A stretch of 32,000 bases of DNA from Candidatus Saccharimonadota bacterium (GTDB taxonomy: Bacteria > Patescibacteriota > Gracilibacteria > UBA1369 > 2-02-FULL-48-14): assembly GCA_016699145.1 (NCBI GenBank), contig CP064962.1:270001-302000 (forward strand), in the 5' to 3' direction. The notes beneath the pieces were generated by a model that was not told the origin of the DNA, made no database searches, and saw only the letters and a program-made list of their open reading frames with translations. Positions 1,952 through 32,000 of this stretch are shown here, one piece after another (position 1 is the stretch's first letter; each line of letters begins with the position of its first letter). A program made the translations under genes and the position numbers.

Positions 1952-2028
1952 GCACCCATAGCTCAACTGGATAGAGCACTGGTCTTCGGAACCAGGGGTT
2001 GGGGGTTCGACTCCCTCTGGGTGCACCA
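1952..2028 (+). tRNA. tRNA-Arg (anticodon UCG), CCA encoded
   Basis: Manual cloverleaf: acceptor GCACCCA/TGGGTGC, D arm GCTC-AACTGGATA-GAGC, anticodon arm CTGGT-CTTCGGA-ACCAG (U33, anticodon TCG, G37), variable loop GGGTT, T arm GGGGG-TTCGACT-CCCTC, discriminator A, then CCA. Confidence 0.9.
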
Positions 2029-4510: not shown

Positions 4511-6685
4511 TCACTCGCGTATCAAATCCATGACCACTAAGTAACGGTAAAGCTCCACGGCCATTTCAGATCGAGAGCGCCCTTCAGTGGCTTCAAAAAC
4601 AGTGCCAGGTTCTTCTTCTAAAATACCCAATTCCGAAGCCTCACTCACATAAATGGAGTACCAGGCATGGGAGTTCAAATCTTCATAAGGCAATTCCTCC
4701 GTCACCGTCCCTTCTTGAAGGCCGGCCTCATAAACATTGAAAAGCATCTTCAAGGCCTCCACCTTGTTGACCGGTTCCCCGGGCTTAAAGCTGCCATCCG
4801 CGTAACCATTCACCCACCCCTCTTCTTTGGCATAACAAACGTATTTAGCGTACCACGCGGTGCCCACATCGCTAAAACAGTTATTGTAATGAGCTCCAGG
4901 AGTGTAACCTCGACCTTCGATCAAAATCTTCAAAAGTTCTGCACGATTGATGGTGACCTCAGGTTTGAAACTTCCATCGGCATACCCTTGAAAAACGCCT
5001 CCTTCCACCAAGGCATGAATCTCGGCATAGCGAGAATGAAGATAAGAAACATCCGAGAAAATCCATGCTTCAGGAGTTACGGCAATTATGGAACTCGCAT
5101 CCACAATGGCCACTCCATTTTCATTGTAAGTTTCCAATTCAAAATAATAGGTTTCCCCCGCCTCCAAACCGCTGATGGTTGCAGAAGTGGTGTAGGCATG
5201 AGGAATGACTTGAGTGAATTCCAAATCGTCGTCTTCGGTTCCATAGTGCACTTCATACGAAAAGACCGAGTCCCGCACCAAACGATTCCAATCCAAAGAA
5301 ACGGAATCCTCATCATAAGAGATCACGCTCAAAACCAAGGTGTTGAGCTCTCCTTTATCGCTCGAAGAAATTTCCCCTTCCTTCGTACCGGCATCTTCAT
5401 CAGTATGAGTCGTTTCCACCTCCACCTGAGCATTGGGAGCCCCAAATTCAGCCCAAAAATTATAAAGATGCCCCTCATCGAAATCGGTGACTCCATTGAG
5501 TTGCGACGCCTCCGCATCCAAAGGAGAAATCACCGCCACTACTCCTTCCACGCCACTCAAATCGGAAAGCTCCAAAGCCTCCTCCATGACTTCATCGGGA
5601 CCTATCGTTTGAGAAGTAGATCGGAGCAAGTTTGCACCCTGCTCGTCATAGGGCACCAAAGTGACCGCAAAACGGATGTTTTCAGGTTTTTGAATATGGA
5701 AATAAAAACTGGAATCCGAACCCGTGTTTTCAAAATAGATGTAATTGCTGCCATACAAAGCAGGAGCATAGTTGGAATCCAATTGCTGATAATCCGTCCC
5801 CGTCTCCCCTTCCAAAAGCAAAACCGAAGGATATAAATTTCCTTCTTCATAAGGTTCAAGGCTCAAATTCCAAAGCGTGAACTGACGAAACACTTCGTTG
5901 AATTCATCCCCCCGAGCGGCCACCACACTTCGAACAGTTTCATACAGTCGAAGGTCACTTTCATATTCCACTTCAGAAGCAATATACGCTTCCCAAATTT
6001 CTTTCACCACATTGTCATTATAGTATTCTGACAGAAAGCGAGGCCAAATGTTGAGTCCGTATTCAAACAAAGAACCCGTGGGAACAAACGAGGCAAAAAT
6101 GGAATAATCCGGATAGTCAAAAAAGTCGGCCAAATAATTCACATAATCATTGATGGAATCGTATTGCAGATCCTCCACCCAAGTGGCCGTGGCCTCAGCC
6201 CAGTTGATGCCAGGATAAGTGTAGGCGAAACTCACTCCATAACCGAATTGAACCGTATGAAAAATTTCATGGCCCGTCGTGACCTGCAAATATTCTTCAG
6301 AAAGCCACGGATCCAAAGCCACATAAGGGTCCCCATTGCTGAGCAAACTGGTCACCCCCAAACTCCCGGACGCAAGATATTGATCCGTATCGTCCAAAAC
6401 AATCAAAAGCAGCTCCCCTTCTTCCATGGGGTCTGGATAATGAAGGTCTTCTATTAAAACTCCATACGCATACTCGGCAGACTCAGCCACAATGTCCACA
6501 ATATCAGGAAGATCATTGCCATCTTCATCCGCTTGCTCCATCAAAAGCTCAGAAAATTCAATACGATAATGCTCCGTTTCATAGGAATACTGCTTGATGA
6601 GACCATGCCCCAACTCCACCGCTTGAGCAAAATCAGGTGTGAGTAAAAGAACAAAAAAAGGAAGGACGTAACGAAGGTTTTTCAT
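4511..6685 (-). CDS. Secreted HExxH zinc metalloprotease with FN3-like domain and two C-terminal SLH domains
   Basis: The probable start is the ATG at 6685 (MKNLRYVLPFFVLLLTPDFAQA, a signal peptide). TTGHEIFHTVQFGY is encoded at 6257..6271, with a downstream WAEATATWVED. The FN3-like segment is SVSLDWNRL...YEVHYG...ISGLEAGETYYFELETYNENG. The two SLH repeats are FSDVSYLHSRYAEIHALVEGGVFQGYADGSFKP and FSDVGTAWYAKYVCYAKEEGWVNGYADGSFKP. Confidence 0.8.
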   Translation of the reverse strand: MKNLRYVLPFFVLLLTPDFAQAVELGHGLIKQYSYETEHYRIEFSELLMEQADEDGNDLPDIVDIVAESAEYAYGVLIEDLHYPDPMEEGELLLIVLDDTDQYLASGSLGVTSLLSNGDPYVALDPWLSEEYLQVTTGHEIFHTVQFGYGVSFAYTYPGINWAEATATWVEDLQYDSINDYVNYLADFFDYPDYSIFASFVPTGSLFEYGLNIWPRFLSEYYNDNVVKEIWEAYIASEVEYESDLRLYETVRSVVAARGDEFNEVFRQFTLWNLSLEPYEEGNLYPSVLLLEGETGTDYQQLDSNYAPALYGSNYIYFENTGSDSSFYFHIQKPENIRFAVTLVPYDEQGANLLRSTSQTIGPDEVMEEALELSDLSGVEGVVAVISPLDAEASQLNGVTDFDEGHLYNFWAEFGAPNAQVEVETTHTDEDAGTKEGEISSSDKGELNTLVLSVISYDEDSVSLDWNRLVRDSVFSYEVHYGTEDDDLEFTQVIPHAYTTSATISGLEAGETYYFELETYNENGVAIVDASSIIAVTPEAWIFSDVSYLHSRYAEIHALVEGGVFQGYADGSFKPEVTINRAELLKILIEGRGYTPGAHYNNCFSDVGTAWYAKYVCYAKEEGWVNGYADGSFKPGEPVNKVEALKMLFNVYEAGLQEGTVTEELPYEDLNSHAWYSIYVSEASELGILEEEPGTVFEATEGRSRSEMAVELYRYLVVMDLIRE

Positions 6686-6775
6686 AAAATATAAGAAGGC
6701 GTGAAGCAGGCGCCTCATTAAAACACAGACTCGCACTTTTTGTAAAACCCTTTATAGTGAGACAAAAATCCCCCT

Positions 6776-9256: not shown

Positions 9257-10222
9257 ATGCGCATTCTTTCTGGAATCAAACCCACCGGACGACCTCATCT
9301 TGGAAACTATTTGGGCGCCATGCGAGAGCACATTGCCCTGCAAAATGAAGGCCATGAATGCTTATATTTTGTGGCCGATTACCACGCCCTCACCACGGTG
9401 AAAAACGCGGCCGATCTCAAAGAATTTCGCCGCGGAGTGGCTCTCGACTACCTCGCCCTTGGACTCGATCCCAACAAAGTGACTTTTTTTTACCAAAGCG
9501 CTGTTCCCGAACATGCCGAACTCGCTTGGATTTTAAACTGCATCGCCCCTCATGGGCTCCTGGAACGCGCCCATGCTTGGAAAGACGCTCTCGCCAAGGG
9601 TCAAAGGGAAATGAATGTGGGGCTCTTCACTTATCCAGTACTGATGGCAGCGGATATTTTGATTTACCAAACCAACCAAGTCCCTGTGGGCCAAGATCAA
9701 AGACAGCACGTGGAAATAGCACGAGACATTGCCGAAAAATTCAATGGACATTTCGGAGAAACCTTCACCCTTCCTGAACCTCGCATCGAGAAATCCGTGG
9801 CAACTGTCCTTGGAACCGACGGACAAAAAATGAGCAAAAGTTACGGGAACACCATCTCTATTTTCGACGACGAAGCTGTCATTAAAAAACAGATCATGGG
9901 CATCAAAACCGCCAGCATCGATTTGAAAGACCCCATGCCCATTGAAAATGATCTCATTCTAGGACTTTATGAACAATTTTCTAGTTCACAAGAACTCGAC
10001 GCCTTAAAAGCCAACTATCGAGCTGGCGGCTTCGGCTACGGAAAGGCCAAAGAAGCTCTCTTTGAAAAAGTACTGCACTTTTTTGCAGAAGCACGAGCTC
10101 GTCGTAAAGAACTCGAAAGCTCTCCTCAACTTGACGAACTCATGGAGCTTGGCGCTCAAAAAGCACGCACGCTCGCTCAAGCCACCATGCACTTGGTTTA
10201 CAAAAAAATAGGCCTCGATTGA
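9257..10222 (+). CDS. trpS: Tryptophan--tRNA ligase
   Basis: Class I HIGH-type motif (GIKPTGRPHLGNYLGA), a KMSKS motif, and the TrpRS-typical YPVLMAADIL...VPVGQDQRQHVE. Confidence 0.93.
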   Translation: MRILSGIKPTGRPHLGNYLGAMREHIALQNEGHECLYFVADYHALTTVKNAADLKEFRRGVALDYLALGLDPNKVTFFYQSAVPEHAELAWILNCIAPHGLLERAHAWKDALAKGQREMNVGLFTYPVLMAADILIYQTNQVPVGQDQRQHVEIARDIAEKFNGHFGETFTLPEPRIEKSVATVLGTDGQKMSKSYGNTISIFDDEAVIKKQIMGIKTASIDLKDPMPIENDLILGLYEQFSSSQELDALKANYRAGGFGYGKAKEALFEKVLHFFAEARARRKELESSPQLDELMELGAQKARTLAQATMHLVYKKIGLD

Positions 10223-10233
10223 CCCCATGCCCC

Positions 10234-10860
10234 ATGAAAAAACTCCTCGCCCTTATCTTAAGCCTCACCTTATCGGCTCCTTTATCCCTGGCAGAGAGCA
10301 GTGCCTTGGACTGCAGCCATCCCTTTGCCGACCTCACCGACCATTGGGGTGAGAATTCCATCTGCGAGCTCTATGAACTGGGAGTGGTGAGCGGCTACTC
10401 CGAAAAAACCTTCAGCCCCAACACTGAAATGACCCGCGCCGAGTTCGTTAAAATTCTCGTCGAAAGTTTGGGATACCACGTTTATGCGGTTCAAAGCGCC
10501 GCCTTCACCGACCTTCATCCTCAAGATTGGTACTACGCCGTGGTGAGCTTCGCCCGGTCCAAAGGCTTTATCTCGGGTTATTCAGATGGGAGCTTTCATC
10601 CCAACGCCCCCATCACTCGGGCAGAAGCAGTGGAATTGCTCATGAATGCCTCGGGCCACTCCAGTGCCGACACCACGAATTTAAACCACCAATTTTACGA
10701 TGTCACTGCCGAAGATTGGTTTGCCCCCGCCTTGGCCTTAGCCTTAGAAAACGACATTGTTCAAGGATATGGAGACGGAAGTTTTCGCCCAAATAACCCT
10801 ATTTCCCGAGCCGAAGCTTGCGAAATTTTGGTAAACGCCTTAACCACGGTACTCAATTAA
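10234..10860 (+). CDS. Secreted protein consisting of three SLH domains
   Basis: The listed start at 10219 is TTG. The ATG at 10234 gives the signal peptide MKKLLALILSLTLSAPLSLA. There are three SLH repeats: FADLTDHWGENSICELYELGVVSGY, FTDLHPQDWYYAVVSFARSKGFISGYSDGSFHP and FYDVTAEDWFAPALALALENDIVQGYGDGSFRP. Confidence 0.85.
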   Translation: MKKLLALILSLTLSAPLSLAESSALDCSHPFADLTDHWGENSICELYELGVVSGYSEKTFSPNTEMTRAEFVKILVESLGYHVYAVQSAAFTDLHPQDWYYAVVSFARSKGFISGYSDGSFHPNAPITRAEAVELLMNASGHSSADTTNLNHQFYDVTAEDWFAPALALALENDIVQGYGDGSFRPNNPISRAEACEILVNALTTVLN

Positions 10861-10931: not shown

Positions 10932-15997
<5,066 letters not shown>

Positions 15998-25497: not shown

Positions 25498-25899
25498 ATG
25501 TACACTTATTATGGAATTTGGATCGACCACGCCAAAGCCTTCGTTCTCAAAGGCAACAAAATGGGCGAGTTCACCTTACAATTCTTGGGCTCCAACGTGG
25601 AACCCCACAATCACGGAGGGGAAAGTGCCGAACACCTCACCGTGACCAATCAACACCGCCACGAAGAACGCCGCAAAAATGAGATGAAAGCCTTCTCACG
25701 CGAAATTTTAGAACTCATCAAAGACCCGGACGAAATCGTGATTTTTGGACCCGGCACCGCCAAACACGCCTTCAAACACGAACTCGAGGCACACAAAGCT
25801 TTGGCCTCCAAACTCAAAGGCGTAGAAACATCCGACCACCTGAGCGAAGCCGAGCTCAAAGAATTTATGAAAGACTATTTCAATTTGCCTCAACATTAG
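25498..25899 (+). CDS. Hypothetical protein, 133 aa (weak resemblance to the host-attachment/eRF1-like small protein family)
   Basis: ORF with an ATG start. The pattern WIDHAKAFVL...MKAFSREILELIK...DEIVIFGPGTAKHAFKHEL...LSEAELKEF recalls Host_attach-type proteins. This comes from memory and has not been verified. Confidence 0.55.
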   Translation: MYTYYGIWIDHAKAFVLKGNKMGEFTLQFLGSNVEPHNHGGESAEHLTVTNQHRHEERRKNEMKAFSREILELIKDPDEIVIFGPGTAKHAFKHELEAHKALASKLKGVETSDHLSEAELKEFMKDYFNLPQH

Positions 25900-27064
25900 A
25901 GGCCCCAAAACTCAAGTTTGAAAAAAGCAGCAGGTAAAAAAACAAATCGTTTTTAAACCAAGGCGTGTCGATGAGGCCGTGAATAAGAAAGTAGAGCAGT
26001 ACATAAGTCGCAAAAAGGCGCACTCCTCGGCTTTTTTTAGCCGTGAACAGGGTCCACAAACAATGCCCCAAAAGGAACACGCTAAAAAGCAGGCCCAAAA
26101 GCCCATGGTTCACCCAAAAAAGCAGAAAGACATTGTGCGGCTGCAAAACGACATAATCCAAAGGTTCACTCCCCAAAACTTCCGCTACATTTTGCTCGTA
26201 ATGCATTTGGAATTGACCCAAGCCCAAGCCCAAGAAAAAATGCCGAGGCTGCTCGAGCAAAAAGGCCGTGGTCTGCCAAATTTGGCCGCGCTCATCCAAA
26301 CTGGAATAGTCGGTTTGAAGTGTGGGTAAAATCTTCACATAAAAGGCAAAAATCAAAAAAATCAGTCCCAATACCCCCACCAAACCTTTGAACCAAAAAG
26401 TCTTAAAAAACGGCAGCGGAGCAGCCCTCAGTCCATAAAGCCCAAGCACACCCAAAGCCCCCCCCATGGCACCAAAAGAACGAGTGGCCAAAATCAAAAG
26501 CCCCGTGATTAAAAAGGGAATCCAAAGCCGCAAACGCTTTGGTTTTTCCACGAGTTCAAAGGCAAAAAACAAAAGCGCCGGAATCAAATAAATCGCCAAA
26601 TAAACAGCAGAATCCAAAGGACCTGCCAAACGCCCATCGAGCATCACATTGAAACCAAGTGCGTTGTAAAGCACAGAAAAAAGTCCGAAACAAAGCGCCC
26701 CATACGAAAGAATTTTAAGCCCTTTCCAACGTTGTTCGTCAGTGCTGTAGGTCTGCAAAAACGTGACCGCAAGCAGCGTTCCAAAAAAGACAAACTTGGC
26801 AAAACGCAGAGCATTCACCGCATCGAGCAAAGGCAGCCACAATAAACTCAACAAAGAAAGTCCTACAAAAATCAGCAAAACTCTTTCACCAAAAAAACCC
26901 TTTAAAACAGCTCTGGGTCCCTTCACCACCACCAGGCAAAAAAAGGCAGCCAAGATCAAGATTTCTTGCAGATTGCTGGGGTAGAATCCAAAAGAAAAAC
27001 GCAGCAAATAAGACTGCAAAAAAAACAAATTGAGCCCCAGTAAAAAAGGAAGTATTTTTTTCAT
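25880..27064 (-). CDS. O-antigen ligase/polymerase family (Wzy_C-type) membrane protein
   Basis: The probable start is the ATG at 27064 (MKKILPFLLGLNLFF), sharing its A with the TGA of the upstream gene (TGATG). It is polytopic, with a loop carrying LDERGQIWQTTAFLLEQPRHFFLGLGLGQF...LQPHNVFLLFWVNHGLLGLL, the R..W...P..G.G.G.F...HN signature of this family. Confidence 0.75.
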   Translation of the reverse strand: MKKILPFLLGLNLFFLQSYLLRFSFGFYPSNLQEILILAAFFCLVVVKGPRAVLKGFFGERVLLIFVGLSLLSLLWLPLLDAVNALRFAKFVFFGTLLAVTFLQTYSTDEQRWKGLKILSYGALCFGLFSVLYNALGFNVMLDGRLAGPLDSAVYLAIYLIPALLFFAFELVEKPKRLRLWIPFLITGLLILATRSFGAMGGALGVLGLYGLRAAPLPFFKTFWFKGLVGVLGLIFLIFAFYVKILPTLQTDYSSLDERGQIWQTTAFLLEQPRHFFLGLGLGQFQMHYEQNVAEVLGSEPLDYVVLQPHNVFLLFWVNHGLLGLLFSVFLLGHCLWTLFTAKKSRGVRLFATYVLLYFLIHGLIDTPWFKNDLFFYLLLFSNLSFGASNVEAN

Positions 27065-28053
27065 CACAATAAGCTTGCCATAAAAAACCAAAAAAGAAAG
27101 GCATGAGAAGCGGTCAAGTGCGGCCACTCTAAAAACGCCAAAAGCCCAAAACAAAGAAGGCTGGTTGCCAAAGCAAAACGACCTTGAATATCCCTTTCTT
27201 GAATCCAAGGCAAAGTTTTGGCCAAAAGCCAAAGACCGGAAGAAAACAGCAAAATCAAAGCAAAAAAGCCGGGAAAAGAATCAAAAAAAGGCAAGGGAGG
27301 CAAAAGTAAAAATCCCTTTTGATGAAGCCAAAAAAGGCCGCCATAAAAGACGAGGCTCCAGATGCCCACGGCCAGCAGCCGCCAAACCCGCTTGGGAAGC
27401 CGAAGCAGCGCAGAAATTCCAAGACAAAAAAGCACCACCCAAAACACCCATAAAGCTTGCAGCAGGATCAGTGCTATCCCTGTCATCAAAAGCACTCCCA
27501 AACTGAAAAGCAAATCTTGTTTAGAACTGAAAAAAACACTTCGTAAAAATGAAAGCACAAAAGCGGAGCCAAAAATCACTAAAAGGGCTCCCTCACCCCC
27601 AAACGGAGCCTCTAAAGGAAGCACCCCTCCACCACGTGAGAGAAAGGTCTGAACCACTGAAAGCGCCAAAAATAAAGCAGCGACCATAAAAGCTCTTTGA
27701 GACAAAAGCAGCATGGAAGCTTTTTCACGAAAAATACTGCGAGCCATCACAAAATAAAGCAAAGGGAAAAGTAAAACTGTTTTAAGCCCCTCCAAGCCCA
27801 AGCCCAATTGTAAAGTCCAAATCCCGAGGCCCAGCACAAAAAGAGGAACAGGCCACAGCTTCCATTCGTGACGGCGAAAAGACTCATGTTCGAATAAAAA
27901 GTAAAACAAGATCGCCGCCAAAAACACCTCCGGTAAAGTCACCGGCACCCCTAAAAAAATCCCCTGAACCACATACAGGGGGAAGAGTAAGGGCAAAAGG
28001 GCCACCAATCGAGGAAAGAGTCCACCCGGCAAAGGCCTCAAAAAAACACTCAT
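27064..28053 (-). CDS. Polytopic membrane protein, hypothetical (N-terminal similarity to the adjacent O-antigen-ligase-family protein)
   Basis: It has about 9-10 hydrophobic helices. The N-terminal segment FPLYVVQGIFLGVPVTLPEVFLAAILFYF parallels FLQSYLLRFSFGFYPSNLQEILILAAFF of the downstream gene. The large loop motif is absent. Confidence 0.6.
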   Translation of the reverse strand: MSVFLRPLPGGLFPRLVALLPLLFPLYVVQGIFLGVPVTLPEVFLAAILFYFLFEHESFRRHEWKLWPVPLFVLGLGIWTLQLGLGLEGLKTVLLFPLLYFVMARSIFREKASMLLLSQRAFMVAALFLALSVVQTFLSRGGGVLPLEAPFGGEGALLVIFGSAFVLSFLRSVFFSSKQDLLFSLGVLLMTGIALILLQALWVFWVVLFCLGISALLRLPKRVWRLLAVGIWSLVFYGGLFWLHQKGFLLLPPLPFFDSFPGFFALILLFSSGLWLLAKTLPWIQERDIQGRFALATSLLCFGLLAFLEWPHLTASHAFLFWFFMASLL

Positions 28054-28097: not shown

Positions 28098-28736
28098 TCA
28101 AAGCCGCCATAGGGTCAGCCGCTTTGACCACCCGCTGGAAACCAAAACACCCACTGCCCCCAATTCCAAGGCCTTGCGCACGTCGGCCCCTGTTTTAATG
28201 CCAGCCCCCACAATCACCTTACCAGGGCCAATCCTATTCACTGCCTCTTGAATCAGCTCGGGGCGAGCCGAAGAAACCGATACATTTCCCCCGATCAACT
28301 CCGGCACTTCCACCGCCACAAAATCGGCACCCATTTGAGCAAATTTATTCCCCTCTTCTTCATTTTCAGCACAAACCACGCTGAGCATTTTATATGGCTT
28401 CATCCGTTCCAAAGCCCGCTGAATTTCAGAGTCGGAAAGACGACGTTCAGAATGATTGAGCATGCTGCCATCGATGCCCTTGGAACGAGCCACTTCAACC
28501 GGGATTAAACCTGTATAAGCGCCATAATTCACCCCATCCATATGCTGAGACAGCACGGGAATGCTGACCGCAGCCGCCAACATTTCAAGATCCAAAACCA
28601 TCCCGATGATCGCCACATGCACCCCCATTTCATTGGCCACACGTTCGTGCATTTTGGCAAGCTCCACAGCCCGGGCCCCAACGGCCTCTTCATAAGCTTT
28701 AAAATTCGTGATGAGAATGGGCGTTTGCAAGGGCAT
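28098..28736 (-). CDS. tpiA: Triosephosphate isomerase, archaeal type, with a C-terminal frame disruption
   Basis: ILITNFKAYEEAVG, VLSQHMDGVNYGAYTG, MLNHSERR, AVEVPELIGG and VGAGIKTGADV match the short archaeal-type TIM rather than the bacterial GNWKMN type. After VLVSSG the annotated frame reads WSKRLTLWRL*. The conserved tail VVKAADPMAALRDLCSGLKAF* is encoded in the -1 frame and ends at 28066. Confidence 0.85.
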   Translation of the reverse strand: MPLQTPILITNFKAYEEAVGARAVELAKMHERVANEMGVHVAIIGMVLDLEMLAAAVSIPVLSQHMDGVNYGAYTGLIPVEVARSKGIDGSMLNHSERRLSDSEIQRALERMKPYKMLSVVCAENEEEGNKFAQMGADFVAVEVPELIGGNVSVSSARPELIQEAVNRIGPGKVIVGAGIKTGADVRKALELGAVGVLVSSGWSKRLTLWRL

Positions 28737-28756
28737 GAACAGGAAGGAAAAGGCGG

Positions 28757-28785
28757 TTGTAAAAAATCAAAAATTATGATACACT
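28757..28785 (+). promoter_or_regulatory. Possible promoter (TTGTAA-17 nt-TACACT) for the large + strand ORF
   Basis: -35-like TTGTAA at 28757..28762, 17-nt spacer, -10-like TACACT at 28780..28785, 30 nt upstream of the ATG at 28816. It sits in the 79-bp divergent intergenic region shared with tpiA. Confidence 0.3.
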
Positions 28786-28815
28786 GTAAGGATTTAAAAC
28801 CAAAACAAAACGCGT

Positions 28816-31800
28816 ATGGCAATTTTCCCGCATTCATCAGCCTTCTTCAATCCGTGGAAGAAAAATCTCTTCTTCTTCATGAGCGGAGAAGCTCCCAGTA
28901 GCGGCGCAGAAGCCTTGCCCGCTTGGAAGGAAACTTTGCTTTTGCAAATAGAGCAAGCCGAGCTACGCACTGAAGACGAAGACCGTCTGAGAAAAGAAGT
29001 GAAAGACTGGAAACCCACTGAAAACGAACGTCAAGATCAATTTGAACTGCGCATGAGATACGCCACCAATAAAGCTGAAATAGCCAAACGCACAGGAGAA
29101 AAATACGGGGATCTAGTTAAAGAACTCACCGCTGGAAAGAAGGCTAAAGACGCCTTGCCGTTTTTACAAAACACAGAGGGCAAATCTCTCTCTGACCACG
29201 TGGCCGACCATGAATTGGAACAAGGCAAGCAATTCACCGTGAACTTCGGGGTTGGAGTGGAAGGCATCAATCAAACACAAGCTCGCCAAGCTCAACGCCG
29301 CATTGGTCTGCACCACATTTTTGCCGATCAACCAGAAATCACCAGACTCGCCGTAACCGATACAAAAGGCAACACGGTAACTGTCCTACGTTGCCCCGAC
29401 GGACGCTATCGAGAAGAAGGCAAGCTCAATAAGAAAAGACATCACCCCATCTACCAAGGATACAGCGTAAAAATTCTTGAAATTGGAGGAAAAGATGAAG
29501 CCAAGAAAATGGCCACACAAGAAGCCGAAATGAAGTCCGATCAAAAGATGGAAAAGGCCGCACAAAGCCGCTTGCAAGACGCTCAAGCAAGCGAAGCGAA
29601 AGCAGCCGAAAGCAGCAGTGTCGCTCAAAATGAGACTCATAAAAAAGCAGCCCTAGAAATGGCCGGTGTTCAAAGCGGCAAGCCCGAAGCAGTTGCTAGT
29701 GAAATTGCACTCAGCCCCGAAGAAGAACAAGCCTTCAACGAACAAAACCGGCTCTTGAGAAATGGTGTGAACGCTTTGACTCAAGAAGTCTTCCTCAGCG
29801 ACTCGAAAGCCGGGGAAATAAAGACGGCCTGCGAACAAGAACTGACCGATAAAAAGTTCAAATCCATCGTCTATGAAGGAAGAGAAGGAGAACTGCAAAA
29901 AGTCACCCTCACTTTAGTGGATAAAAAGGGAATCGAACACAAATACACAGGAACATCCAGTCACCCCATTGGCGTCAATGCTTTTGTGGATGAAAACTTA
30001 CCCGGAATCGCGCCCGGCGCAGAAAGCGTCAAAGCCTATGCTTGGAACCGCGAAGCTTTTAAAGACTTAATCAAAGACCTCGCCAAAACAGGAGGAGAAA
30101 TCGTTCACCCTGAACACAGTTCCCCTTATGACAATGGAGTGATCTATGGAGGCGTGCGAAAAGCCGCAACCACCGGTGAAGAAGGCGGAACCCTTGCTGA
30201 AGTGGCCAACCCTGAATACGGAAAAGCCCACCAAAACCTCAGCCAAGTGGATAGAAACAACGACGGCAGCATCGACATCAAAGATTACGAATATGTACAA
30301 AGCCTCAAAACAGGCGAAGGCGCTCGCCTGCCCGACGCCCTAAAAAAGTGGACCGTCGCCGATTTTGAAGCCAACAAGCACCGCATCGATCACATGGATC
30401 AATTCTGGGATTCCCTGCAAGTGCTCGGTAAACAAAGCGGAAAAACCGAAATGGAACTGCTCAGACCCTTTTTGGATGGAAATAAAATCACCTATCAAGA
30501 ACTCTGCCGTCAAGTGTATGGACAAAGTCCCGAAAAGCTTTGGGAAGATTATTCAGAAATGCGCGATGCCTTAACAAGGCAAAACGCTCAATCCGACAGT
30601 GAAAAAACAAACATCAAGAAGAAAGACCGCATGGGAGAAAGCAAGGACGAATACTACACCTATGCCGAACTCAAAGCAGCCACTCAAAACGATGAAGCCT
30701 TCTTTGAAGCCAGCTATCGCCTGCTCGAAGCCACTCGCGTTTTAGAAAAAAACAAGAGCAGCATTGTGGAAGGATCGGTGGAAAACGGCACCCCAGAAAC
30801 AGCCAAAAAATTGGTGGCTCAACTCTTCGATCCCACCGATACGGCTCCCCTTGCCAGACGCACGCTCGGCGAAGTTTTGCGAGGCGAAGAAATCGAAGCC
30901 AGCATGGATTCCACTCATCGGGACTACTTAATGAAAGGAGAAAATCGTTACGAAACTCACATCTCTTCCGCAGGAGCGTATGCTTTGCTGCTGGGGGAAT
31001 TCGCCCACGGGGCTGAAATGGACTACAAAGGGCTCTCTGCTCGGCTCACTCAAATGCGCAAGGCCGGTCTTCTGTTTTACGAACAAATGGCTCCTAAAGA
31101 CCAAGAACGCCTCAATCGTTCCCTAGCCAAAGAATGGGGCATTACAGCCGAAGCCGTGCCTGCAAAACTGAAAGCGGCCGCTGAAGGCGCAGCCTTGGAT
31201 GAAAACAAACTCCAGTCTGAAAAGCCCTTCACTCCAGAAGAAATTTTGCTCATTCAATTGGGCATGATTCCCGAGGCCTCTCGCCGTGAAGCCGCAGACG
31301 TCGCCAGCGTAGAACGCATCAAACTCAAAGAAATGAATGAAGAAGCTCGAAACAAAGTGGCCGAGGCCGTCAAAGCCATCGGAAAGGCTTATCAAGAAAA
31401 AACAGGTCAAACTCTCTCCGAAGAAGAGCTCAAGAGCTTGGAACAAGAAGCCTTGAACCAACTCGTCATTCGTGAAAACAAAGGGGCCCTCGGTCTCGCC
31501 TTCAAAGTCAGCGACGGAAACGTGGATGCAGGAGCAGGTTATGCCCGAGAATTGGTCCGTGTGCCCATGGGCGACAAAGGGTACCTCAGCATCAACGCTG
31601 GAGTAGGAGTCGCTTGTATTGAAGAACTCCGCATCGTCGAAACACTCAGCGTGGGCGCCGATGTCAAAGTGGGAACTCGCTTTGGAAAAGAAGACCAAAA
31701 CCGCGCTTCCGCTGCGGTGGGAGCAGCCATCTCTGTAGGAAAGGTGAACCTGGGGGCCAAAGTCGGCATACAAGTCAAAAAAGACAGCGAACGCGTGTGG

Positions 31801-32000
31801 TACCTTGGAACCGGAGTGGGAGCCGCAGTGGGCCTCGGCCTTGAAGAAGGCGGCACTTCCGTGAAATTGGCCTACCTGGAAGCAGGCCGTGATTTGAACG
31901 CAGCAGCTCAAAGAAAATTCCGTGAACTCAAAGAAAAAAATCCTGAGTTTGAAAAAGAACTCAACGACTATATTCTTAAAACCTTGGACGCCTATCGCGC
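28816..32000 (+). CDS. Very large hypothetical protein (at least 1,061 aa, 3' end beyond the window); not present in the supplied ORF track
   Basis: I translated frame 1 codon by codon. There is a stop at 28795..28797, the first ATG is at 28816, and no stop follows through 32000. Codon usage resembles the neighbouring genes. The N-terminus is MAIFPHSSAFFNPWKKNLFFFMSGEAPSSG. I recognise no signal peptide or known catalytic motif. Confidence 0.8.
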   Translation, partial: MAIFPHSSAFFNPWKKNLFFFMSGEAPSSGAEALPAWKETLLLQIEQAELRTEDEDRLRKEVKDWKPTENERQDQFELRMRYATNKAEIAKRTGEKYGDLVKELTAGKKAKDALPFLQNTEGKSLSDHVADHELEQGKQFTVNFGVGVEGINQTQARQAQRRIGLHHIFADQPEITRLAVTDTKGNTVTVLRCPDGRYREEGKLNKKRHHPIYQGYSVKILEIGGKDEAKKMATQEAEMKSDQKMEKAAQSRLQDAQASEAKAAESSSVAQNETHKKAALEMAGVQSGKPEAVASEIALSPEEEQAFNEQNRLLRNGVNALTQEVFLSDSKAGEIKTACEQELTDKKFKSIVYEGREGELQKVTLTLVDKKGIEHKYTGTSSHPIGVNAFVDENLPGIAPGAESVKAYAWNREAFKDLIKDLAKTGGEIVHPEHSSPYDNGVIYGGVRKAATTGEEGGTLAEVANPEYGKAHQNLSQVDRNNDGSIDIKDYEYVQSLKTGEGARLPDALKKWTVADFEANKHRIDHMDQFWDSLQVLGKQSGKTEMELLRPFLDGNKITYQELCRQVYGQSPEKLWEDYSEMRDALTRQNAQSDSEKTNIKKKDRMGESKDEYYTYAELKAATQNDEAFFEASYRLLEATRVLEKNKSSIVEGSVENGTPETAKKLVAQLFDPTDTAPLARRTLGEVLRGEEIEASMDSTHRDYLMKGENRYETHISSAGAYALLLGEFAHGAEMDYKGLSARLTQMRKAGLLFYEQMAPKDQERLNRSLAKEWGITAEAVPAKLKAAAEGAALDENKLQSEKPFTPEEILLIQLGMIPEASRREAADVASVERIKLKEMNEEARNKVAEAVKAIGKAYQEKTGQTLSEEELKSLEQEALNQLVIRENKGALGLAFKVSDGNVDAGAGYARELVRVPMGDKGYLSINAGVGVACIEELRIVETLSVGADVKVGTRFGKEDQNRASAAVGAAISVGKVNLGAKVGIQVKKDSERVWYLGTGVGAAVGLGLEEGGTSVKLAYLEAGRDLNAAAQRKFRELKEKNPEFEKELNDYILKTLDAYR

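Follow-up and report, generated by a model that had tools for sequence, protein, structure and literature searches.

An undescribed, syntenic family of giant proteins in Peregrinibacteria and its possible role at the inner face of the cell membrane

Introduction

Peregrinibacteria and other bacteria of the Candidate Phyla Radiation (CPR) are uncultured organisms with tiny genomes and are presumed to lead a life attached to other cells; their genomes carry many conserved hypothetical families, with much of the conserved proteome unannotated. Here we describe a giant gene that begins near the end of a 32,000-nucleotide (nt) stretch of contig CP064962.1 (GenBank assembly GCA_016699145.1, positions 270,001 to 302,000 of the forward strand), referred to below as the window, and that is transcribed away from the triose-phosphate isomerase gene tpiA. 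An earlier note, made from the letters of the window alone, had singled out this gene as hidden and potentially new. Comparison with related loci indicates that it belongs to an undescribed family of giant proteins that keeps the same genomic position in the loci examined, and we tentatively propose a role for the family as a cytoplasmic scaffold at the cell membrane.

The open frame and the features of the locus

Between 28798 and 32000 the plus strand can be read as 1,067 codons without a single stop, and the first ATG of this frame lies at 28816, GTG and TTG being absent between 28798 and 28816. The earlier note had read both the frame and its start in the same way, had estimated a guanine-cytosine content of about 48% (47-52% as measured) and had argued that a frame of this length is not due to chance, which is confirmed by a probability of 1.4e-23 for 1,067 stop-free codons calculated from the base composition of the window. 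It had also explained correctly why the program-made list of open reading frames (ORFs) lacks this frame: ORFs that run past the window edge have no stop inside it and therefore go unlisted. The gene is hidden in that list only, as the 1,061 codons in the window form the N-terminus of the GenBank hypothetical protein IPG41_01615 (P0001 in our numbering; 100% identity, 100% coverage), a protein of 1,751 amino acids (aa) from Candidatus Peregrinibacteria encoded on a 1.34-Mb contig. The gene is thus already annotated, though uncharacterised, and the window holds its 5' 61%, with the stop codon beyond 32000. The features at the locus are as follows.

28098-28736, minus strand: tpiA, matched by NF003302 at 2e-65 and found in the same position in all related loci examined
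28757-28785, plus strand: promoter-like element, read from the sequence, with a -35 TTGTAA (28757-28762), a 17-nt spacer and a TG-extended -10 TGATACACT (28777-28785)
28786-28815, plus strand: A-rich leader GTAAGGATTTAAAACCAAAACAAAACGCGT of 30 nt, lacking a normally spaced Shine-Dalgarno sequence before the ATG
28816-32000, plus strand: first 1,061 of the 1,751 codons of the giant gene (IPG41_01615), 100% identical to P0001, with a ratio of nonsynonymous to synonymous substitution rates (dN/dS) of 0.14-0.26
28816-28881, plus strand: conserved N-terminal peptide (aa 1-22), consensus MA[ILV]xCxNxGFxxPFxxxxxVF[LF], 56% invariant in close homologs and recognisable in the majority of distant members
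29206-29493, plus strand: predicted N-terminal alpha/beta domain (aa 131-226), with motifs TVDF ... R..DGKY ... GD.V.V
29494-29715, plus strand: Ala/Glu/Lys/Gln-rich charged long helix or linker (aa 227-300), 18% invariant, with a predicted helix at 226-282
29716-30105, plus strand: predicted second alpha/beta domain (aa 301-430), with helices at 301-343 and strands at 346-381
30106-30303, plus strand: variable, probably disordered linker (aa 431-496), indel-rich in the alignment, which holds the EF-hand-like loop
30304-31455, plus strand: predicted all-helical domain (aa 497-880)
31477-31893, plus strand: first eight of the ten strands of the amphipathic, Gly/Ala/Val-rich beta module (aa 888-1026), with a family-wide two-residue alternation and a conserved G.xRDL..V..KK at its end
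31894-32000, plus strand: start of a helical hairpin (aa 1027-1105) that precedes strands 9-10, from predicted secondary structure and the alignment

The possibility that the frame is not a gene, but is open by chance, is a pseudogene or stems from faulty assembly, has in its favour only the absence from the ORF list, for which the window edge accounts. Against it stand the chance probability given above, the presence of full-length homologs in independent assemblies and the dN/dS values. We regard this possibility as already refuted, its remaining probability being negligible, and the frame as a real gene with near certainty. Two minus-strand ORFs, 31123-31911 (262 aa) and 31539-31856 (105 aa), are antisense to the Gly/Ala-rich beta module; because open stretches on this strand are placed differently and vary in length from one homolog to another, these are read as shadow ORFs and not as genes.

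Homologs and selection

The homologs P0002-P0005 (1,768-1,883 aa, 45-61% identity) can be aligned with P0001 from end to end. The comparison of dN/dS among relatives that the earlier note had proposed was made at the codon level and gave 0.14 for the sole pair with unsaturated dS (0.71) and 0.19-0.26 in the other pairs, indicating that the giant gene is under purifying selection. A HMMER profile covering aa 516-1680, run against 1.84 billion cluster representatives, retrieved 33 proteins at E <= 0.001 (22 of these at E <= 1e-30). These proteins, nearly all of them 1,400-1,800 aa long, align collinearly with P0001 from one end to the other (17-27% identity). A word-indexed protein search with a 32-sequence alignment added only P0037. 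The family comprises about 35 representatives of 1,400-2,000 aa, and all members with a named source are entered as 'hypothetical protein' of Candidatus Peregrinibacteria or the Patescibacteria group. P0001 has the traits that mark the family, namely collinear similarity over the full length, the conserved N-terminal peptide, the HIxxWN and MGFxxxCxNFT motifs, the beta module and a place next to tpiA. The family is undescribed and so far known only from Peregrinibacteria/Patescibacteria. The exact P0001 protein was absent from the contig index searched, and scans of JGI metagenomes with peptide patterns and the conserved leader motif gave no match.

Each locus examined carries a single copy of the giant gene, and its product is among the largest proteins of these genomes. 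In one distant relative (L007) the first ~190 residues, including the FVYLNGGA motif, are encoded by a separate ORF (9396-9968) that precedes P0037 (10001-16078); the gene is split there, or the assembly is in error.

Gene order, downstream partners and promoter

In the related loci, the genes upstream of the giant gene follow the order greA, rpoD, dnaG, a GT4 gene (MraY/WecA-like), truB, murE and ribF, with Wzy_C and tpiA further along, and the window itself has a matching upstream gene order. On the strand opposite to tpiA, the relatives then encode the giant protein, a mini-lipoprotein, a secreted protein of 1,283-1,427 aa and holA. This synteny holds in every locus fetched, even where the giant proteins share just 22-25% identity. 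The extension called for in the earlier note thus yielded the full length of the protein from GenBank and the downstream partners from syntenic homologs, and the window's own genome probably shares the arrangement of giant gene, lipoprotein and partner. Position, synteny and selection together point to a core gene rather than an accessory toxin-like gene.

The secreted partner (L001, 15304-19587; L005, 14931-18782; L007, 16310-20440; L002, 7920-10172) has a signal peptide, 2.0-2.7% Cys, 3-7% Lys+Arg and a very acidic composition (12-21% Asp+Glu), and gave no domain match in Pfam, NCBIfam, PADLOC or PHROG. It is 41-70% identical across loci; between L001 and L005, for example, the partners share 41% identity and the giant proteins only about 22%. 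To judge from its sequence, this Cys-rich protein is the surface protein of the locus. The mini-ORF between the two large genes has 43-55 codons and a lipoprotein lipobox (L-x-x-C) and is kept in four lineages (L001, ~15144-15301; L002, 7731-7889; L003, ~11148-11296; L005/L006, 14798-14929), although it is not called as a gene in L001 and L003. The gaps between giant gene, mini-ORF and partner range from a few to ~30 nt.

The divergent arrangement of tpiA and the giant gene across a 79-bp spacer, as described in the earlier note, is also present in the window. This spacer (28737-28815) is 87% identical across five genomes, which is above the conservation of the coding sequence, and the promoter-like element within it is invariant or nearly so in these genomes, whose synonymous sites are saturated. 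In a consensus scan the window element scores 8/12, under the threshold, and is therefore unlisted there; the same scan found the equivalent promoter of L001 (TTGAGA-17-TACACT with TG), and such elements are recognisable also at more distant loci. The element at 28757-28785 is best described as a putative promoter. The conserved spacer, promoter and leader support 28816 as the true start of the gene, and the conservation of the spacer suggests that expression of the giant gene is tightly controlled.

Domain architecture

To obtain structural models, the two halves of the protein were predicted with AlphaFold2 (AF2) on a 5-sequence alignment, with a predicted local distance difference test (pLDDT) score of 58 for the N-terminal half and 38 for the C-terminal half. 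Within the window, pLDDT reaches 61-84 in the N-terminal alpha/beta domain, about 60-76 in the second alpha/beta domain and about 65-87 in the all-helical domain, and falls to 23-38 in the variable linker. Conservation is highest (60% invariant) at aa 497-580 (30304-30555), at the start of the all-helical domain. Beyond the window lie a mixed alpha/beta domain (aa 1141-1345), a helical domain (aa 1360-1700) with the near-invariant HIxxWN and MGFxxxCxNFT motifs, and an acidic, Pro/Gly-rich C-terminal tail. A catalytic His/Cys pair, H1468/C1673, was considered from conservation and found no support, as the region is predicted to be all-helical and the residues are 205 apart. The N-terminal peptide does not represent a Sec, Tat or lipoprotein signal.

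Searches of Pfam, NCBIfam, PADLOC and PHROG with P0001 and its homologs returned nothing significant except a LysM domain in P0034, a syntenic ortholog, and within PADLOC and PHROG no family matched P0001 or P0009, while P0034 matched LysM-related PHROGs only. Searches of PDB sequences by phmmer and with the family profile gave only noise at E > 0.2. The N-terminal model had no significant Foldseek match in PDB, and the single match in BFVD (E = 1.4e-4) is meaningless, with a root-mean-square deviation of 40 Å and a template modelling (TM) score of 0.08. The statement of the earlier note that the product resembles no recognisable enzyme or transporter family is therefore borne out, and the confident profile match to a characterised family that might have made the gene less novel was looked for in these searches and not found.

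The LysM domain of P0034 (PF01476, aa 139-170) is canonical, with 37.1 bits against a cut-off of 20.9 (Pfam 3e-9) and matches to PDB LysM chains at 5.5e-11, and the multiple alignment places it where the family's N-terminal alpha/beta domain sits. In P0001 and its close homologs Pfam found no LysM, and a comparison by hhalign of family alignment A8 with the P0034 LysM gave a probability of 0.1%; the N-terminal domain was accordingly rejected as a divergent LysM, and the window protein cannot be called LysM-containing. The best PDB profile match of this domain, which is present twice in P0011, is domain 2 of ShyA at a non-significant E of 0.2. SH3b-like repeats in P0037 were also considered and are unsupported.

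An EF-hand-like loop pointed out in the earlier note, DRNNDGSIDIKD, does occur (aa 479-490, 30250-30285); its match, however, is not significant, and the loop is not conserved. EF-hand_1 (PF00036) scored E 0.2 and 11.7 bits on the window protein against a cut-off of 25.4, and the match disappeared in the full-length scan. The loop falls in an indel of the variable linker, is absent from P0002, P0003 and P0005 (three of the five close homologs) and is only loosely present in P0004. For these reasons the loop is not counted here as a functional EF-hand.

The beta module

The Gly/Ala/Val-rich module that the earlier note had placed at about aa 890-1024 proved to be real and conserved, as part of a run of ten amphipathic strands spanning aa ~890-1135, strands 9-10 (aa 1106-1135) lying beyond the window. 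The predicted strands are 7-16 residues long and their faces alternate strictly across the family: the hydrophobic face consists of 62% VILFMWYC, 15% Ala and 6% charged residues, and the polar face of 29% Gly, 27% STNQ and 20% DEKR. The Gly/Pro-rich hairpin of aa 1106-1135 reaches Kyte-Doolittle values of 1.7-1.9 in many members and is the only strongly hydrophobic stretch of the protein. This alternation is compatible with a membrane-exposed barrel or hairpin array, and also with a soluble barrel whose core is hydrophobic.

Several small transmembrane beta-barrels of 10-12 strands (Porin_4, OMP_b-brl, OpcA, OmpW, FapF and the designed TMB10) resemble the module in its ten alternating amphipathic strands and through weak sequence matches, namely Porin_4 (PF13609; E 0.036, 14.3 bits against a cut-off of 27) and, in one of 31 members, OMP_b-brl (PF13505; E 0.026), neither of which is significant. 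A Foldseek search of PDB with the C-terminal model (pLDDT 28-44 in the module) listed mostly transmembrane barrels, none at E <= 0.001, and included a designed 10-strand barrel on which the model superposes at a non-significant TMt of 0.68-0.72. A profile match of the module to the aerolysin-type crystal protein 2ztb (E 0.53) is also not significant. The resemblance to these barrels is limited by sub-significant scores throughout, by the position of the module inside a 1,751-aa protein without a signal peptide, by the 79-residue helical hairpin between strands 8 and 9, and by the host lineage, which has no known outer membrane.

Composition and localisation

No signal peptide, helix-like transmembrane segment or N-terminal hydrophobic segment was found in any of 38 family members, in agreement with the earlier note, which had seen no signal peptide in the product. 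Lys+Arg content was then compared between protein classes, using the window genes and those of L001, L005 and L007. Exported proteins of these genomes (SLH proteins, lipoproteins and the partner) contain 2.9-5.8% Lys+Arg and cytoplasmic housekeeping proteins 9-17% (Mann-Whitney p = 1.5e-5), in a test of about 70 proteins sorted by a crude classifier. The giant protein has 11-15% Lys+Arg in all members and 9-16% in each domain, and its Cys content is 0.40% in P0001 and 0.1-0.5% in the family. Since the Lys+Arg content is cytoplasm-like in every member and every domain, it speaks for a protein that remains cytoplasmic in its entirety, and against a surface or toxin role. A cytoplasmic location of the giant protein is, on this evidence, probable. 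The Lys+Arg split could also be used as a predictor of localisation for this lineage.

Other features of the window

The tpiA product is short (212 aa) and is matched far better by NF003302/PRK04302, which we take to be the archaeal-type triose-phosphate isomerase model, than by the usual bacterial models of this enzyme. Between tpiA and the Wzy_C gene (25880-27232, minus strand) lies a gene for a 329-aa multi-pass membrane protein without a family match (27064-28053, minus strand), which is present in L002 and L003 and absent from L001, L004 and L005. It overlaps the longest ORF reading of Wzy_C by 169 nt, and the Wzy_C start is therefore probably further downstream. Three SLH-domain proteins are encoded at 4511-6736 (minus strand), 10219-10860 (plus strand) and 10932-12935 (plus strand), one of them also with fibronectin type III, and their SLH domains indicate that this organism has wall-anchored surface proteins. 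A 458-aa protein without a Pfam match (14621-15997, plus strand) has an N-terminus that presumably resembles PilC/GspF platform proteins, and a tRNA gene at 1952-2025 (plus strand) is the sole Rfam match in the window.

Comparison with known systems

The closest analogy is with HMW1, HMW2, HMW3 and P200 of the Mycoplasma attachment organelle, which are giant, signal-peptide-free cytoskeletal accessory proteins with acidic Pro-rich tails that, from the cytoplasm, support large surface adhesins encoded nearby. The shared traits are the giant size, the missing signal peptide, the acidic Pro-rich tail and the occurrence in host-dependent bacteria with small genomes. There is no sequence relation, as the P0001 family matches no Pfam family, theirs included, and Peregrinibacteria, in contrast, are walled, as seen from murE and the SLH proteins of the window, and are not known to form an attachment organelle.

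Inverse autotransporters (intimin/invasin, type Ve) show a LysM domain, a barrel and a large C-terminal region in the same order as the giant protein does, if the LysM of P0034 is counted and the module is taken as barrel-like. The giant protein, however, has no signal peptide and no match to their Pfam barrel family, carries about 890 residues before its barrel as opposed to roughly 200 in intimin, and has a helical rather than Ig-like C-terminal region; the LysM, moreover, is missing from the window protein.

Peribacteria and Peregrinibacteria have been described as encoding large, lineage-specific, Cys-rich extracellular proteins of 1,200-3,900 aa that are functionally unannotated (Anantharaman et al. 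2016, PMC4736985). The giant protein comes from the same phylum and is of similar size and equally unannotated, but it lacks a signal peptide, contains only 0.1-0.5% Cys and is cytoplasm-like in Lys+Arg, and its family is undescribed there. It is the downstream partner, with its signal peptide, its 2.0-2.7% Cys and its acidity, that fits that description exactly.

Proposed role and alternative scenarios

We propose that the giant protein is a cytoplasmic scaffold at the membrane that works with a co-transcribed surface protein, a reading to which we assign a probability of roughly 35%. According to this proposal, the protein would remain in the cytoplasm and serve as a large scaffold of several domains on the inner side of the cell membrane, where its conserved amphipathic, Gly/Pro-rich beta module (aa ~890-1135) would hold it. 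Acting jointly with the 43-55-aa lipoprotein and the secreted, acidic, Cys-rich surface protein, it would form the inner part of an envelope or attachment apparatus specific to this lineage. Coupling of the giant protein to its partner has about an even chance of being correct, and association with the membrane is a little more doubtful than that.

Several points weigh against this proposal. We infer the scaffold role, the coupling to the partner and the membrane association alike, and co-transcription with the partner is deduced from gene spacing in the relatives only. LysM domains usually bind peptidoglycan, outside the cytoplasm, and a cytoplasmic scaffold does not account for the presence of one in a syntenic ortholog. 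The weak porin and outer membrane protein (OMP) matches and the barrel-like AF2 model would suit an envelope location at least equally well. The AF2 models are poor, and the composition test draws on about 70 proteins and a crude classifier. The evidence from Lys+Arg and signal peptides thus conflicts with that from the P0034 LysM and the OMP-like module, and we have no explanation for this conflict.

If the membrane association is given up, the protein may instead be a soluble, cytoplasmic, lineage-specific housekeeping protein involved in cell organisation, division or the handling of nucleic acids or metabolites, with no relation to the surface protein; its adjacency to the partner would be historical, and the beta module would be an ordinary soluble barrel or sandwich with a hydrophobic core. 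The missing export signal and the cytoplasm-like composition are as expected for such a protein, as are its housekeeping neighbours in strongly conserved order (tpiA, murE, truB, dnaG, rpoD, holA and glnA), and the strands of a soluble barrel would likewise alternate every two residues. A polar strand face with 29% Gly would nevertheless be unusual for a solvent-exposed surface, and neither the operon-like spacing to the lipoprotein and partner nor the LysM of one ortholog is in keeping with this scenario, which we consider somewhat unlikely. An opposite solution places the protein in the envelope, exported by an unrecognised Sec-independent route, perhaps by means of its N-terminal peptide, with a wall-binding N-terminal region, an OMP-like 10-strand barrel in the membrane or an outer layer, and the C-terminal region outside. 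This would make sense of the LysM at the N-terminal-domain position of P0034, the Porin_4 and OMP_b-brl matches, the transmembrane barrels in the Foldseek list with the designed 10-strand barrel among them, the strict strand alternation, the nearby envelope genes (Wzy_C, GT4, murE and the SLH proteins) and the Pro/Gly/acid-rich C-terminal tails. It is, however, at odds with the lack of a signal peptide in all 38 members, with a Lys+Arg content 2-4 times that of all exported proteins in these genomes and with the failure of hhalign to detect LysM similarity in the family N-terminal domain; the barrel matches are all non-significant and derive from a model of pLDDT 38, and CPR bacteria are, to our knowledge, regarded as lacking an outer membrane and the beta-barrel assembly machinery (BAM). 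We therefore regard an envelope location as unlikely. Its most far-reaching form, a Sec-independent giant protein with a genuine OMP-like 10-strand barrel and an ancestral wall-binding module in a supposedly single-membrane CPR symbiont, is very unlikely; if true, the protein would form a conduit into a partner organism's membrane or belong to an unrecognised outer layer of the envelope, and would be a concrete candidate for how these symbionts make contact with their hosts or draw nutrients from them.

The earlier note had suggested surface, host-interaction or toxin-like functions, and these are disfavoured by the absence of an export signal, the cytoplasm-like Lys+Arg in all domains and the place of the gene in the syntenic core. 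A host-directed effector or pore-forming toxin would be released or injected, its amphipathic hairpins inserting into the membrane of the partner organism. In its size, its missing signal peptide and its central hydrophobic module the giant protein does recall the large clostridial toxins, which share these traits, the beta module has the weak match to 2ztb mentioned above, and Peregrinibacteria have been proposed as symbionts (PMC4736985). Nevertheless, the position of the gene in the core genome is fixed in all loci examined, purifying selection extends over the whole length with no diversifying variation seen, families of toxins, immunity, defence and phages gave no match, and no catalytic domain was found, which makes this scenario highly improbable.

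Significance

The family is of interest for its size and its setting: it occupies the same place in each locus examined, lies upstream of a huge Cys-rich surface protein and shows conservation of its promoter and leader above that of its coding sequence. These traits make the giant protein a well-defined candidate, open to test, for a structural function at the core of this lineage and specific to it. Should it be neither a cytoplasmic anchor nor an envelope barrel, it would be an ordinary conserved hypothetical protein; if it does anchor a surface apparatus from the cytoplasm, or is a barrel protein of the envelope, it would offer insight into the cell biology of the CPR bacteria.

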